From Endomicrobiales bacterium (GTDB lineage: Bacteria; Elusimicrobiota; Endomicrobiia; Endomicrobiales; CAWCFT01): 64,000 nucleotides of DNA. This document shows positions 8,151 to 17,482 of this stretch, piece after piece. A program made the position numbers and the translations under genes. The stretch covers positions 59,473-123,472 of the forward strand of contig CAWCFT010000003.1 of NCBI GenBank assembly GCA_963794945.1. Reading direction: 5' to 3'. Position 1 is the first letter of the stretch, and each line of letters starts with the position of its first letter. The notes beneath the pieces are model-generated. The model made no database searches. It worked only from the letters and a program-made list of their open reading frames with translations, and had not been told where the DNA came from.

Positions 8151-9225
8151 ATGCACGCAAATAAAAAAATCACATTAATAGGTATTGTTTTAAGCGTGGT
8201 GTCCATCGGGTTTGTCTATGGAGACTACACCATATCTACTTTCGCGGGTAATGGGAACCGGGGGTATTCGGGCGACGGGGGGCAGGGCCGATACTGCTGA
8301 ACTCAACGGGCCTTCCGGCTTAGCGGTAGATACTTCAGGGTATGTTTACATTGCGGATTTCGGCAATAACGTGATAAGGAAAGTAAACCCCAGGGGCGTC
8401 ATATCAACTATAGCAGGCAGCGGCGCGCGTGGTTATTCAGGCGACGCCAGTACAGCAACATTGGCCCAGCTTAACGGCCCTTCCGCTGTGGCTGTGGATG
8501 CTTTGGGTAATGTTTACATAGCCGACAGCGGCAACAACGTAATAAGGAAAGTGGACACCTCGGGCGTCATAACTACTATTGCCGGCACCGGCACGGCGGG
8601 TTATTTAGGCAAAAGGGGCCCCGCCACATCAATTGAACTTGACGACCCTTCCGGCGTAGCGGTAGACGCCTCGGGCAATGTCTACATAGCCGACAGCAAC
8701 AACAGCATGGTAAGGAAAGTAAACACCTCTGGCATGATGTCCACTTTTGCCGGCAACGGTAACCGCGGCGATTACGGCAACAACTGCAATGCAGGTTCGG
8801 CTGAACTTAACTCGCCCCGCGGCATAGCGGTAGACGCTTCCGGCAATGTCTATATAGCTGAAGAATTAAGCCAGCGGATAAGGAAGGTTAACACTTCAGG
8901 CATCATATCAACTATTGCCGGAAATGGGAGAAGCGGCTATTCAGGCGACGGCGGCAGCGCGGTTTCGGCAAAACTTAATACACCCCTCGGTGTTGCGGTA
9001 GACGCCGCGGGCAATATCTATATCGCCGACGTTGGCAATAATAGGATAAGGAAAGTAGACACTTCCGGCATAATTTCAACCGTAGCTGGTAACGGCACGC
9101 GCGGCTATTCGGGAGACGGCGACGCCGCCTCTTCAGCCCAGCTCAATTCTCCCCGCGGGGTGGCAGTAGACGCTTCGGGGAATATTTATATAGCTGATAT
9201 TGGGAATGACAGGATAAGGAAATAA
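8151..9225 (+). CDS. Secreted NHL-repeat beta-propeller protein (frameshift near 8286)
   Basis: Signal-like MHANKKITLIGIVLSVVSIGFVYG, then six ~56-aa repeats (LNxPxGVAVDASGNxYIADxxNxxIRKV...GYSGDGG). Confidence 0.9.
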
Positions 9226-9341
9226 AGACTACAGAGGAAGCAATAAAATAGAAAAAGAAGAGCATCGAAAGTCATGCGTCATAAGATACAAATTGTGGCA
9301 AAACCTAAGTAATCAATATCTGTGTCATTAGGCAATCCGGA

Positions 9342-11147
9342 TTGCGTAAGATGAGATCATTATCTAAAATTAACTTCATTACCTTTGCTGTTTTTTTTAT
9401 TTTACAGTTAACCGCCTGTTCAACCTTGCCGCCTTTGAAGAAGGGATCTGTTTCTGATGAAAAATATTCCGCCGCGATAGAATCGATAAGGAAAGATATA
9501 CGCAGCGAGATGAAGAAGCATCATGTTGTAGGGCTCAGCATTGCAGTGGTGGACGACCAGAAGATAGTTTGGTCGGAAGGGTTCGGGTATGCTTCAAAAA
9601 CGCAGAAAGTACCGGCTACGGCAGACACTATTTACCGCATTGGATCGGTTAGCAAACTATTTACAGCTACAGCGGTTATGCAGCTTTCGGACCGTGGAGA
9701 GATCGATATTGATAAACCCCTGAAAGCATACCTTCCGGAGTTCAACATAAAAAGCAGGTTTACCGATACCGCGCCTATCACTGTGCGTTCCGTTCTAACC
9801 CATCACGCTGGATTACCGAGGGACTATTTAAAAGGGTGGTTCACGCAGACTTCAACGGGGGCCGTGCAGTCCTGGCAGAACCTCGCGGGTGATGTCGGCA
9901 GTGAATATGTGTTGTTCCCTCCAAAATTCGTTTACGCTTATTCTAACCTCGGGTTCTCGCTTCTTGGGCGGGCGGTGGCGCGAGTTAGCGGGCAGGATTA
10001 CGACAAGTTTATCTCTTCTAACATTTTTACTCCTCTGGGCATGAACCACTCTTCGGTAATGTACAAACCGGAGTTTAAAGCCTATTATTCGGAAGGATAT
10101 TTCGGCAAGCGGGAAGTGAAGAACGCCGACATACACATGCGAGATATGAGCGCCGGGGCTCTGCTCTCCAGCGCTAACGACATGGCCCAATTCATTAAAA
10201 TGGTGTTCGCGGACGGCGCCTCAGGGCAGGGTGCTATCCTTAAACCTGGAACGCTTAAAGAAATGCTTACCCCGCAAAACACGTCCGTTAAACTCGACGG
10301 TAAAATTCACGGCGGCCTCGCTTACGGGCTGAGCGGCATAAAGGAGCTTGACTATGTTTTTACCGCGACGCACGGCGGGTATCTGCCTCCATTCCACAGC
10401 ATGGTCATTATGGCGCCGGACCAGAAACTGGGAGTGGTAGTGCTTGTCAACACCGACGGCAGCAACCCTAACAAGCTGGCTGTTAAAATGCTTTCTACGA
10501 TGATCGAGGCAAAAACCGGCTTGAAAGCCCCGGAAAAAACAAAGGCCGTGCTGAAAGTAGTGCCGCTGTCGAAACAGGAGCAGGGCCTTTACCGTGCATA
10601 TTTCGGAGCCTACAACCTTTTAGGGGAAGACGGCAGTTTGCTTGAGATCGAGCCGTCGGCCAAGGATCTTGCTGTAAAAGTTGATGGTCGCAGGACAATT
10701 CATCTTATACCCACAGGAAAAAACGCCTTTTACTTTAAGGTAAACCTTTTGAGCGTTTTTCCGGTAAGGTTGAAAAATAAAAACCTGAACATTGATTTTA
10801 TCGATGATAACACCGCGGTGGTGCGCTCGCTCGGCGTACCGTACATGATAATAGAGCGCGTGGCCAAGGCTCCTCTTCCCGAAACATGGAAAAAGCGGTG
10901 GGCAAATATGGGTTAACCAACCCAGACCTGAATTTCCCGATAAAAAGCAAGGCAGCGGAATTATGCTGGGACGATAAACACAGTGTTCTCTTTATTAGAT
11001 GGGGCTGGCAAAAAACTCCCCTTAAAACCGTTTTCGGACGATAACGCGGTGATGTACGGGATGGGCGCTACTATCCGCGCTGAAAAACGCGGAGGAGAAG
11101 AACACTTGACGTTTTCGGGGTTTGATTTTGCCAAAGGCAGAAAGTAG
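9342..11147 (+). CDS. Serine hydrolase, class C beta-lactamase/PBP family lipoprotein (frameshift near 10905)
   Basis: Lipobox LTAC; SxxK (GSVSK); LTHHAG; YSN; HGG; C-terminal extension continues in another frame to a stop at 11147. Confidence 0.88.
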
Positions 11148-12151: not shown

Positions 12152-12727
12152 ATGGAGATCACGCAAGAACTAAGAAGTATAGTCAGCCCAGGCAAGACGG
12201 CGTTGTTGGTTTGGGACGTGCAGAACAGGCTGGTTAGCTCTATTTTTAACCGCGATGAGTTTTTGGCAAATACCAACAAGCTTATTGCCAGGGCTCGGGA
12301 GAAGGGGGTACCTGTAATATTTTCTAAGTCCACTCCCCTGCCGGACAAGTTCGCGTCGCCGGTTATGAAGTTTATCTGGCGGGAGCGTTTCAAGAAAATG
12401 GCGCAGGCGCCAAACGGGCAAGACCTGACTATTCCGGCGCTTGAAAATGATATTGTGATACCTAAAAATACCGCCAGTATGTTCGTCGGCACCAACTTTG
12501 AGCTTATACTCAGGAACGCCGGGCTTACAACCATTGTTTTTACCGGTATAGCCACTGAGTTTGGCGTGGAATCCAGCGCGCGCGACGCGTCAAACAGGGG
12601 CTTTTTTCCGGTTATCGCGACCGACGCTGTGTCCTCGTTTGACCAGGAAGCCCACAAGCGTTCGCTTGCGAACATGGCCAACATGATGATACTTTTAAGT
12701 AGTGATGAGATCGTTAAGCTGTGGTAA
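12152..12727 (+). CDS. Isochorismatase-family hydrolase
   Basis: ALLVWDVQN, IPKNTASMF, TGIATEFGVESSARDA, ATDAVSS. Confidence 0.9.
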   Translation: MEITQELRSIVSPGKTALLVWDVQNRLVSSIFNRDEFLANTNKLIARAREKGVPVIFSKSTPLPDKFASPVMKFIWRERFKKMAQAPNGQDLTIPALENDIVIPKNTASMFVGTNFELILRNAGLTTIVFTGIATEFGVESSARDASNRGFFPVIATDAVSSFDQEAHKRSLANMANMMILLSSDEIVKLW

Positions 12728-12799
12728 GTCCTGTTAGAGCGGTATAAACGAAAATACAGTCTCGGCATGGAGTCACCTATGAAAGAAAAAGTCAAGGTG

Positions 12800-13015
12800 A
12801 CAAAAAGTATCTCCGCAGTAGTTTCTAACTACTGATCTGTTCTGTTAAACAAGTTCTTTGGCCGTTCGCCCGCTTTGTATCGTAAGAAGCTCCGAAAATA
12901 TCCGGACTTCAGTCACCTATTGGCAGCTCTGCACTTGGCGGACTGCATGATAGAATCGGGCGACGCCCCTCCGCTAATCAGACTTGTTGAAGCTGTCAGC
13001 CTTGCGGCGGACACT
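12800..13015 (-). ncRNA. Putative bridge RNA/seekRNA in the IS 3' non-coding end (boundaries approximate)
   Basis: Hairpin-rich; contains AAGTCTGA and CATGCAGTC matching the reconstructed target flanks and ATAGGTGA matching the donor junction. Confidence 0.7.
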
Positions 13016-14041
13016 TCAGGCACCATTGAGCGCGAGGGACGCCGTAGTCCGTATATAATATGGCCGCTTATCTTTCAAAACTCGATACACAATTTTCAAT
13101 AAATCTCTGGCAAGAGCCACTCGCGCCACGTTGGGCGCTTTCCGTTTGGCTATAGCTTCATACTTTTCTGTTCGTTCAACGCTGCTCTTTGAAAAATGGT
13201 GAACTGCCTCAATCAATATCCACTGTAGGTGTTTACGCCGATTCTTATTTAAAGAACCGTGATATTCTTTGTCGGCGCTCTGGAATGTTCTCGGTGCAAG
13301 GCCTGCGTACGCGCAGAGGCGGTTAAATGTTGTAAAACGGCTAATATCGCCTATCTCGCTTTTAATAAGCAACGCACCAAAACTGCCTATCCCAGGAATA
13401 CTTTCAAGATTCCGCGCGTCGGGATCACTTTCGGCTATTGCATGTAGTTGCCACCCGATACGGTTTTCACGCGCATTCAAAGCGCCTATTTGCTCAATCC
13501 AGTTTTCTGCGGCAATCCGGCACGGTTCAGATAATTTGTTCACCGCAATACTATTCAATTGCTTCATTGAAGTATAGTCACCCGTTGACATCTGTCCATG
13601 GCGATCAAGCAGTGACTTTAACCGTGCTGTGTTCCGCGTTCGTTCACTGACAATGCTCATCCGGCAATGCAATAGTTCTTTAATAGCTCGTATCTTCTTG
13701 TCTGGCAGCTCTACTGTAGGTAAATAGCCCTTACGGAGCACATCGGCTATAAGCCGGGCATCTATCTTGTCTGTTTTCTTGTTTCGTTTTGTAAATGCTT
13801 TCAGCTCGTACGAATTCGCCAGGTATACTTTATCAGCATATTCTTCGGCGAGATCAACGAAATAGTACCAATTGTAAGTCGTTTCAACTGCAAGCGTAAA
13901 TGGTCGTGGGAGCGTTTTATAATATGATCGCAACACTTCTGGCAAATTTGCTATACTCTGGCTGTCAATCCGTTTGCCCTGCTCGTTCGTCACGTAAAAC
14001 CAAGAACGCTCTTTGTGCAAGTCTACACCAACATAATTCAT
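13016..14041 (-). CDS. IS110 family transposase/recombinase (DEDD RuvC-like plus Tnp20 domain)
   Basis: YVGVDLHK, AVETT, KTDKIDA, SIPGIG, AYAGLAPRTFQSA; RBS GAGGAGG before the ATG at 14041. Confidence 0.95.
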   Translation of the reverse strand: MNYVGVDLHKERSWFYVTNEQGKRIDSQSIANLPEVLRSYYKTLPRPFTLAVETTYNWYYFVDLAEEYADKVYLANSYELKAFTKRNKKTDKIDARLIADVLRKGYLPTVELPDKKIRAIKELLHCRMSIVSERTRNTARLKSLLDRHGQMSTGDYTSMKQLNSIAVNKLSEPCRIAAENWIEQIGALNARENRIGWQLHAIAESDPDARNLESIPGIGSFGALLIKSEIGDISRFTTFNRLCAYAGLAPRTFQSADKEYHGSLNKNRRKHLQWILIEAVHHFSKSSVERTEKYEAIAKRKAPNVARVALARDLLKIVYRVLKDKRPYYIRTTASLALNGA

Positions 14042-14146
14042 GGCAACCTCCTCGTTTTGTCTTATTGCTCGATACAATAAGTTTAACAAAACTAGATGGA
14101 GGTTGCTTTCATATTATCAGGCTTAGCGTAGAGGTAATGGAAAAAC

Positions 14147-14551
14147 ATGAAGAATAATATAGCTATACTTCGCATTAGTTATTGGTTCGGAGCTATTCTC
14201 GATGGCATTATGGTCATTCCGATGTTATTTCCAAATATTGGCGGAATAATGTTTGGAATAAATAATTTTCATCCGGGTAATGATTATAAGTACGCAATGA
14301 TGATAGGCGCTTCATTAATGTTGGGTTGGGCTATCTTGCTGTTATGGGCCGACAGGAAACCGCTTGAACGTAAAGGTGTAATCCTGATAACCATGTTTCC
14401 GGTTGTAACAGGCATGATACTGTCCGGTGTCTATGCTGTAAGTACCGGGCTGATAAGAATAGAAAAGATGGCCCCGACCTGGATACTTCAAGCGGTTCTT
14501 CTGCTATTATTTATGTACGGTTATTTTTCGGCTTGCAAAGAGACTGCATAA
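14147..14551 (+). CDS. Four-TM membrane protein of unknown function
   Basis: Four hydrophobic segments; GASLMLGWAILLLWADRKPLERKG. Confidence 0.75.
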   Translation: MKNNIAILRISYWFGAILDGIMVIPMLFPNIGGIMFGINNFHPGNDYKYAMMIGASLMLGWAILLLWADRKPLERKGVILITMFPVVTGMILSGVYAVSTGLIRIEKMAPTWILQAVLLLLFMYGYFSACKETA

Positions 14552-16865: not shown

Positions 16866-17087
16866 ATGAAGAGCGTATTTTCGATAAGGTTGACCGAGTT
16901 TGAGAGAAAAGAGCTCGGCCAGATAAGCAAAGAAGATAAATCCCCCGTGGGGAAATTGATAAGAGAATCTATAGACCGGTTTATAGCGGTTAAAAGGTTC
17001 AGACAGTTAAGAAAAAAGGGAATGGCTTTCGCGGAAAAGAAGGGAATTTATACGGATGAAGACGCCTTCAAGGCCTTTGAAAGATGA
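16866..17087 (+). CDS. Ribbon-helix-helix (CopG-like) antitoxin
   Basis: SVFSIRL...LIRESIDRF...GIYTDED; overlaps the PIN gene (ATGA). Confidence 0.8.
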   Translation: MKSVFSIRLTEFERKELGQISKEDKSPVGKLIRESIDRFIAVKRFRQLRKKGMAFAEKKGIYTDEDAFKAFER

Positions 17088-17482
17088 GGATCGTAATAGA
17101 TTCAAACGTTCTTTTTTCCGCTTTTGTCGCCAGAGGTATCTGCGCTGAGATAGTCGAATCGGTATTAATGAGGCACGATTTGATAATATGCGAAGAGATA
17201 CTGGCTGAACTGAAAAGAAATCTGTCTAAAAAAGCCGGCGCGCCCGGCTCAGTAATTGAAGAATACATTAAGTTGCTGAAAATGTATTCGGTTGTCCATA
17301 AGCCCTGTAGTGTTGAAATTAATGCCTGCAGGGATAAGGATGACTTAATGGTTCTTGGCACGGCGGACGCCGGCAATGCCGATGTTATTATTACAGGCGA
17401 TAATGACCTTCTGTCGGTAAAAACTTACAAAAACATTAACATACTGAGCCCAAGGGACTCAATAAAACTTTTAAAAACATAA
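17084..17482 (+). CDS. PIN-domain toxin of a putative type II TA system
   Basis: RIVIDSNVLFSA, CRDKDDLMVL, IITGDNDLL. Confidence 0.9.
   Translation: MRIVIDSNVLFSAFVARGICAEIVESVLMRHDLIICEEILAELKRNLSKKAGAPGSVIEEYIKLLKMYSVVHKPCSVEINACRDKDDLMVLGTADAGNADVIITGDNDLLSVKTYKNINILSPRDSIKLLKT

Follow-up and report, generated by a model that had tools for sequence, protein, structure and literature searches.

The RNA-guided mechanism used by insertion sequences of the IS110 family has been known since 2024, and the features in which the element reported here departs from it are modest. Its anatomy recalls the IS1111 seekRNA elements ISEc11, ISPa11, ISKpn4, and ISPst6 (Siddiquee et al. 2024, PMC11187229). 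Like them, it carries an RNA in the non-coding stretch 3' of the gene with the match to the top strand lying 5', its sub-terminal repeats stand 7 and 3 bases from the ends according to the IS1111 rule, it has a putative junction promoter, and its targets are of the repeat type; its protein, at 341 aa, falls within the IS1111 range of 330 to 350 (PMC11187229). The second point of reference is IS621 and ISCro4 (IS622), which share with our element a DEDD plus serine active site, two RNA loops, a 2-nt core, and what appears to be the same handshake logic (PMC11208160, PMC11208158, PMC13626964, 10.1101/2025.05.14.653916); related IS110 work was also drawn on (PMC12288879). Unlike in IS621 and ISCro4, the RNA here lies on the 3' side of the gene and has the opposite reading orientation on the DNA, the donor loop is multi-branched, and the core, instead of CT or GT, would be CA when put in the IS621 frame. 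A known IS1111-type element also homes into the end repeats of another mobile element; here, the host repeat is that of an HUH tyrosine transposase.

The window is the whole 64,000-nucleotide stretch of contig that we analyzed. On sequence evidence, positions 12774-14119 of its minus strand are an intact insertion sequence of the IS110 family, with IS1111-type ends and a 3' bridge or seek RNA whose guides can be read. It is intergenic, with an isochorismatase gene ending at 12727 and an open reading frame starting at 14147. Its basic features are as follows:

12774..14119, minus strand: insertion sequence including both copies of the TG core, 1,346 bp, with five copies in its own genome
14118..14119, minus strand: TG core at the left junction, found at both junctions of 5/5 own copies
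12774..12775, minus strand: TG core at the right junction, found at both junctions of 5/5 own copies
14106..14112, minus strand: left copy of the sub-terminal inverted repeat, ATGAAAG, set 7 bases inside the element
12779..12785, minus strand: right copy of the sub-terminal inverted repeat, CTTTCAT, set 3 bases inside the element
13016..14041, minus strand: IS110-family DEDD recombinase, 341 aa, from Pfam, NCBIfam, and alignment to IS621 and ISCro4
14047..14053, minus strand: ribosome-binding site GAGGAGG, assigned by sequence

A reading of the sequence alone had preceded this analysis and had suggested a search for further copies. A BLAST search with the element returned four more full copies in the same genome (G000), 98.5 to 98.9% identical to that of the window. 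The ends are sharp and common to all five: left junctions read target, TG, and ATAATATG, and right junctions read CATAGG, TG, and target. The ends given earlier, 12773 and 14119, were right to within one base, since A12773 is target DNA and the element ends at 12774. The GA or TGA core proposed with them did not survive, TG alone being common to both junctions. On the left, TG is followed by A in all five copies; on the right, it is followed by G in copy C1:172969 and, among orthologues, by G in L020 and L028 and by T in L061 and L067, and these five sites rule out a core that includes the A. Because the base after TG is not common to both junctions, we define the core as TG and the element as 12774-14119; under the 7+3 convention, it would be 12776-14119, without any duplication. 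Insertion is target specific, in a single orientation, with a short shared core and no true duplication at 5/5 own sites.

Excluding the cores, the non-coding ends measure 76 bp on the left and 240 bp on the right, 3' of the gene. Differences among the copies are confined to the coding sequence, and the 3' end is the same in 5/5. The reading frame is kept in two copies, that of the window and C1:143915, and in C1:172969, C1:137662, and C2:82260 it is broken by single-base indels in A runs, through real decay or assembly error. Between 13373 and 13895, 16 mid-gene positions of the window copy differ from C1:143915, changing four amino acids; 12 of these differences are unique to the window copy, and four are common to C1:172969. 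Such a pattern would be expected if copies had recombined with one another or with a sister element. The majority alleles at the divergent positions were found in other sequencing runs. The same genome has a second, unrelated IS110-family gene (C14:67004-67444; 406 aa, 27 to 30% identity). It has no orphan copies of the RNA, 5/5 matches being the five elements. An empty allele of the window's site was not found among 60 relatives, none of them of the same family or genus, and 4 of the 60 carry distant IS110 matches only.

The recombinase contains the DEDD RuvC-like domain PF01548 (E = 1.4e-23) and Transposase_20, PF02371 (E = 4.1e-19), and scores 220.5 bits against NCBIfam model NF033542 (cut-off, 140). 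Alignment to IS621 and ISCro4 predicts catalytic residues D7, E53, D91, D94, and S255, all in the expected motifs. S255 lies in GLAPRTFQSA (motif G-x-x-P-x4-S), followed by Ala rather than the Gly of IS1111 proteins; among the best 120 of 642 homologues, Ser-Ala occurs in 74 and Ser-Gly in 20, with 22 pattern mis-hits. The protein is far from its described counterparts, at 25% identity to an ISEc11-family and 21% to an IS4321-family protein and with E values of only 7e-12 and 4e-15 against IS621 and ISCro4. In a 17-row tree, the window clade (100/100) stands apart from an ISEc11/IS4321 clade (100/100), in which branches are long and the deep ones unsupported; we therefore call the element IS1111-type in anatomy and do not assign it to the core IS1111 clade. 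Its sub-terminal repeat also differs from the usual 11 to 13 bp of IS1111 elements, being 7 bp (9 of 10) and inside the reported range of 7 to 17 (PMC11208160). One search yielded 642 homologues at E ≤ 1e-30, the close ones labelled Endomicrobiales, Scalindua, Dehalococcoidales, and Omnitrophota. Named relatives in plasmids and phages were none of them near (best identities, 35% and 28%), and an Rfam search at E ≤ 1 gave 0 matches. Pfam, NCBIfam, and the guide scans described below support what the sequence-only reading proposed, an intact IS110-family recombinase with a 3' RNA whose guides can be read against target and donor. Its label of a new programmable recombinase candidate is fair, yet the element is an ordinary one, given these 642 homologues and the 32,190 bridge RNAs already modelled in print (10.64898/2026.10.21.760802).

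Which parts of the RNA read the target was assessed by scoring every stretch of the element, on both strands, against the flanks of the five own sites, which have AAG[CT]C-TG-[AG][CT][AT]CC in common. The target halves and the guides assigned to them are the following:

14120..14126, minus strand: left half of the target site, CTAAGCC, by flank comparison
12766..12773, minus strand: right target half, ACTCCATG, with a worse fit to the top-strand guide than at any of the other four sites
12979..12986, minus strand: bottom-strand (left) target guide, CAAGTC plus TG, from the scan, shuffles, and permutations
13019..13027, minus strand: top-strand (right) target guide, AATGGTGC plus C, the codons Asn-Gly-Ala just before the TGA stop

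For the left flank, the top scorer of the whole element is CAAGTCTG (12986-12979), the same guide that had been picked from the sequence alone; its U pairs with both T and C sites via G.U wobble. All strings quoted in that reading do lie where it put them: AAGTCTGA at 12985-12978, CATGCAGTC at 12949-12941, ATAGGTGA at 12920-12913, and the arms GGGCG/CGCCC at 12968-12957. For the right flank, the best 8-mer is AATGGTGC (13027-13020), with scores of 5, 6.5, 5.5, 6.5, and 7 over the five sites (mean, 6.1 of 8), versus 7, 4.5, 3, 4.5, and 5 (mean, 4.8) for CATGCAGTC. In 1,000 dinucleotide shuffles of 13050-12800, the left score was reached by 7, the right by 44, and both by none.

The earlier layout, in which the guides follow the IS621 order, CATGCAGTC reads the right target, and the core is GA or TGA, now seems highly improbable. 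What speaks for it is the window's own right flank, which CATGCAGTC fits better than AATGGTGC does (7 versus 5 of 8) and to which it has an 8/9 match, a level that chance should reach, by our estimate, in roughly a few percent of 250-nt stretches. The flanks of the other insertions, against which that reading had itself proposed to hold its guides, refute the layout, and its predicted consensus site has 0 occurrences in the genome. As a right-target guide, CATGCAGTC is also rejected by its conservation: its CATGC is invariant across orthologues with differing targets, and its GCAG belongs to a conserved stem with a compensatory change. The IS621-like order fails as well, the top-strand guide lying 5' of the bottom-strand guide. 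Read on the other strand, the order we find is that of IS621, and the handshake positions (PMC11208158, PMC13626964) would then be taken, in each loop, by the two bases that follow the core-binding TG.

Orthologues offered a separate view of the guides. Genomes and metagenomes provided 18 loci, of which 16 (L017 to L032) were analyzed, L033 and L034 being short partial matches. The left guide variants AGGTG, AGGTT, AGACT, and AGATC change with the left flanks, and a right guide with GGGG goes with flank CCCC, one with GGTG with CACC. The left-target guide of the sequence-only reading thus holds both as top scorer and by covariation. The cognate pairing was reached by 2/5040 permutations for the bottom guide (7 classes over 17 elements; L017, L025, L030, and L031, with no guide or no left end, left out) and by 42/40320 for the top guide (8 classes over 18 sites; L028, with 4 bases of flank, and L023 and L025, with no right end, left out, and L026 kept though a probable assembly artefact), counts that overstate the case because the orthologues are kin and the top-guide signal is largely one split (GGTG versus GGGG). 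Later loci L060 and L062 fit their guides. Right-flank fits are poor in L018 (4.5) and L026 (4.0) and also in L061 and L067, so off-target or half-match insertion must be allowed. Half-match insertion has been reported for IS621 (10.64898/2026.08.31.748434) and may explain these poor right flanks.

Some orthologous loci show peculiarities of their own. In L017 (2245-2330), the bottom-strand guide arm is missing, apparently deleted between two GCTTCC repeats, and the insertion site is normal. The right end of L026 (2480-2539) is tandemly repeated three times at a contig end, probably as an assembly artefact. L064, L066, L069, and L070 hold degenerate RNA copies, in stretches without an intact transposase tail, which may be remnants.

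An alignment of 10 RNAs was folded with RNAalifold. The consensus has 47 pairs, 22 of them with two-sided changes; the guides stay unpaired, those for the target standing opposite each other in an internal loop. The RNA elements are the following:

13028..13043, minus strand: 5' arm of the outer stem of the target loop, located within the coding sequence and pairing with 12974-12962, with two-sided changes in orthologues
12962..12974, minus strand: 3' arm of the target-loop outer stem, holding the GGGCG noted earlier, from the consensus fold
12977..12978, minus strand: putative handshake dinucleotide AU of the target loop, which would match donor AT after strand exchange, by analogy with IS621
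12948..12956, minus strand: candidate top-strand (right) donor guide ATTCTATCA, the weakest assignment, 7/9 here
12923..12947, minus strand: inner hairpin of the donor loop (GCAG...CTGC), holding most of CATGCAGTC, positions 118-121 pairing with 140-143
12914..12920, minus strand: bottom-strand (left) donor guide, ATAGG plus TG, the only 7/7 match in the element body
12912..12913, minus strand: putative handshake dinucleotide AC of the donor loop, which would match target AC after strand exchange
12886..12910, minus strand: second hairpin of the donor multi-loop, its loop holding ATATTTTC, from the fold
12866..12872, minus strand: CGGGCGA, probable closing partner of TCGCCCG (12963-12957) and approximate 3' end of the RNA, from the centroid fold

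The GGGCG/CGCCC hairpin described from the sequence alone is absent from this 10-sequence consensus, in which GGGCG closes the target-binding stem. The pairing of CGGGCGA has a matched change in L022 and is absent from the RNAalifold consensus. The donor region runs in the order ATTCTATCA, hairpin, ATAGGTG, second hairpin; many IS1111 orthologues have been described with a donor part of multi-loop form (PMC11208160). Nothing in the element body but ATAGGTG matches the right end exactly, and the left-donor guide named earlier is retained. In L028, ATGGG occurs in both the donor guide and the right end; in L017, it occurs in the guide, but the end reads ATAGG. The right-donor candidates put forward before were dropped, ATATTTTC being the variable loop of a hairpin. 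For ATTCTATCA, the match is 9/9 in L019 and TATCA is invariant in 10/10 RNAs, with no covariation. In the right-donor scan, the best 9-mer lies in the coding sequence (8.0), and ATATTTTCG (7.5) exceeds ATTCTATCA (7.0); as the scan scores other stretches higher, this assignment rests on conservation. CATGCAGTC can be regarded as scaffold because of its overlap with an invariant stretch and with a stem, that of the inner hairpin, in which L019 has the compensatory change GCTG/CAGC.

These data bear on whether the donor loop guides at all. The target loop might be functional alone, with the protein recognizing the sub-terminal repeats and the donor-like stretches serving as scaffold or processing signals. 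In ISEc11, an 82-nt target-only RNA sufficed for movement (PMC11187229). Here, RNAalifold pairs TATC of the right-donor guide with a conserved downstream GATA, the donor covariation amounts to one event (L028), and L017 has a guide that differs from its end. Against this stand the exact ATAGGTG match followed by a target-matching AC, symmetric to the target loop, the 9/9 right-donor match in L019, and the matched change in L028. We consider a target-only RNA unlikely, and we proceed with a donor loop that would read the element's own ends.

In that reading, AU and AC would serve as handshake bases. The target-loop AU is invariant in 10/10 aligned RNAs, as is the donor-loop AC, and AC follows TG in 16/19 right flanks. 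This invariance is consistent with the role, although the target A could also reflect the consensus of the repeat. On exchange, Watson-Crick pairs would rise from 2 to 4 at 4/5 sites and stay at 2 at the fifth. As in IS621, where pairs go from 1 to 3, the target-loop AU faces donor AT, and exchange would bring a net gain of 2 pairs.

The joined ends of a circular form may make a promoter, whose boxes are as follows:

12790..12795, minus strand: -35 box TTGACT of the putative junction promoter, with spacing kept in orthologues
14111..14116, minus strand: -10 box TAATAT of the putative junction promoter, with the TG before it forming an extended -10

In the computed circle junction, 17 nt separate TTGACT from TAATAT, with the core TG acting as the extended -10. 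TTGAC lies at the same distance from the core in 19/19 right ends, though the search pattern allowed six spacings. A scan for internal promoters in the element showed no excess (3 found versus 2.5 expected). The circle joint did not occur in contigs of 4 public runs. One metatranscriptome contig spans 12785-12977; such contigs are silent on transcript ends, strand, or level. A public RNA run gave two matching contigs, one of which extends into flanking DNA, so that they cannot show a transcript.

Very probably, then, this is an RNA-guided insertion sequence that works like IS621 and whose DNA frame, as in IS1111 elements, is inverted with respect to the gene. Expression, circles, and activity of the element are all predicted. 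The element circle, joined at TG, would unite TTGACT and TG-A-TAATAT as a promoter, from which the recombinase and an RNA of about 180 nt at the 3' end of the transcript, starting some 30 nt before the stop codon, would be transcribed. Covariation shows that the first internal loop of the RNA reads the target: to the right of TG, the top strand pairs with the 5' strand of the loop, and to the left of TG, the bottom strand pairs with the 3' strand of the loop. The second, multi-branched loop would read the element's own joined ends likewise, as the left-donor match indicates in part. By analogy with IS621, a recombinase tetramer would cut on either side of the 2-nt core via Ser255 and exchange strands, and the gain in handshake pairs at four of the five sites would favor insertion. 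In sequence, the guides match the terminal inverted repeats of TIRYT genes and scattered intergenic copies of them, so most insertions fall between genes.

In TIRtrons, or TIRYT systems, the gene for a long Y1 transposase, whose C-terminus is DnaA-like, lies between inverted repeats that follow the consensus GGGGWSAS (Di Nocera 2013, PMC3733652; Quentin 2018, PMC6006769). Judged from the repeats below, the lineage of our element homes into the inverted repeats that flank TIRYT (TnpA-Y1 subclass 2.1) tyrosine-transposase genes. At C15:88240-89124, the own genome encodes a 294-aa REP-associated tyrosine transposase (NF047646, 88.2 bits; cut-off, 80) with a weak Bac_DnaA_C match, and inverted repeats carrying the target motif flank it on opposite strands, at 89180 and 88220. 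The locus has the TIRtron arrangement of a long Y1 gene and GGGGWSAS-like inverted repeats, one base off the consensus; unlike in described TIRtrons, the repeat reads GGTGTCAG. Among the best-scoring Y1 loci of five relatives' genomes and G000, the motif stands upstream of 8/18 and downstream of 5/18 long loci (two of them from G000), versus 0/13 and 1/13 for short IS200-like loci (three from G000). The repeats at the relatives' Y1 loci resemble the guides of the orthologues in sequence. Two further sites of the same type came from three loose contig ends in other runs. The available text of PMC3733652 (0 mentions of IS110 or IS1111) and of PMC6006769 does not report an IS110-family element in TIRtron repeats, and literature searches found no such report elsewhere.

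Five intact AAGCC-TG-ACACC sites are left unoccupied in the genome, compared with 0 to 2 in five shuffles, and most carry a longer common repeat; the empty sites have no common hairpin fold. At least 3/5 own sites (C1:143915, C1:137662, and C2:82260) also lie inside a longer TIR-type repeat. It might accordingly be DNA structure, or else the Y1 transposase, that selects the repeat in part (TIR ends could be single-stranded or bound by protein, for example), leaving the guides only to refine the selection; ISKpn4 and ISPa11 do target potentially folded sites (PMC11187229). We judge such a contribution quite unlikely, as the window site and C1:172969 have neither longer repeat context nor hairpin and yet fit the guides, and guide changes follow flank changes base by base. 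Guidance by the RNA remains our preferred account of target choice.

Two loci deserve mention for their repeats. At C1:137300-147200, target repeats in direct orientation alternate with single genes; a second Y1 transposase (C1:145821-146477) and two element copies lie nearby. In L032 (1055-1115), the left flank is a long palindrome with the target motif in both arms.

The RNA would start within the gene. Its top-strand target guide is the codons Asn-Gly-Ala, and the TGA stop that follows is part of an invariant scaffold, CTGAAG. Since the guide is the last three codons, retargeting rewrites the C-terminus of the protein. The transposase C-terminus is in frame up to the scaffold TGA at 16/16 loci (L020 and L032 are broken further upstream) and at the 4/4 later loci with a gene. 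Among the best 120 of the 642 homologues, classed by protein tail alone and ranked by a score that favors query-like tails and so weakens the count, 86 tails end in xL-x-G-V, which fits a stop at the same scaffold TGA, over 12 linker lengths. In that set, the tail stops at the first guide codon in 7, within the 5' stem in 16, and ahead of the RNA in 5; 1 reads past, and 5 end otherwise. These classes imply that the tail is dispensable and the frame mostly kept. In an ISEc11-family copy, more than 100 nt separate the stop from the target matches that follow it, whereas in the window element one match precedes the stop, and the ISPa11 and ISKpn4 RNAs were mapped downstream of the gene (PMC11187229). 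Durrant et al. took 3' flanks with 50 bases of coding sequence. No earlier report of the overlap between guide and coding sequence or of lineage-wide TIRtron targeting was found in our literature searches, which covered texts and part of the supplements; the overlap may be implicit in figures or other supplements.

A broader proposal, which we put forward tentatively and hold to be doubtful, is that of a bridge-recombinase lineage apart from the characterized IS1111 clade, present in several phyla, in which translation of the RNA's first arm and of one target guide yields the C-terminus, with the stop codon as scaffold. The frame would be kept over at least 12 linker lengths, translation termination would be coupled to release or folding of the guide RNA, and the lineage would be a parasite of TIRtron ends that tracks the drift of the repeats by guide changes. 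If so, a ribosome ending on the guide would keep the target loop unfolded until the protein is made, favoring loading in cis.

The element provides a natural 3'-encoded bridge RNA that can be read throughout, with all four guides, of which the right-donor guide is the weakest, together with both putative handshake pairs. In its light, the reversed order of the guides in IS1111 elements, a possible mechanistic difference in PMC11187229, looks like the IS621 geometry on the other strand. Cloning the non-coding end alone would probably omit a target guide, and mining intergenic sequence alone would likely truncate the RNA. The element further adds a TG/CA core to the different CT and GT cores in use so far and gives a name to an RNA-guided parasite of TIRtron ends.

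Two other regions of the window drew attention. At 16866-17482, a 73-aa open reading frame and an overlapping one of 132 aa look like what we take to be an antitoxin and PIN-domain toxin pair. At 8212-10916, a repeat-rich, presumably beta-propeller-like open reading frame accompanies one that we assume to be serine-hydrolase-like, with an SxxK motif.
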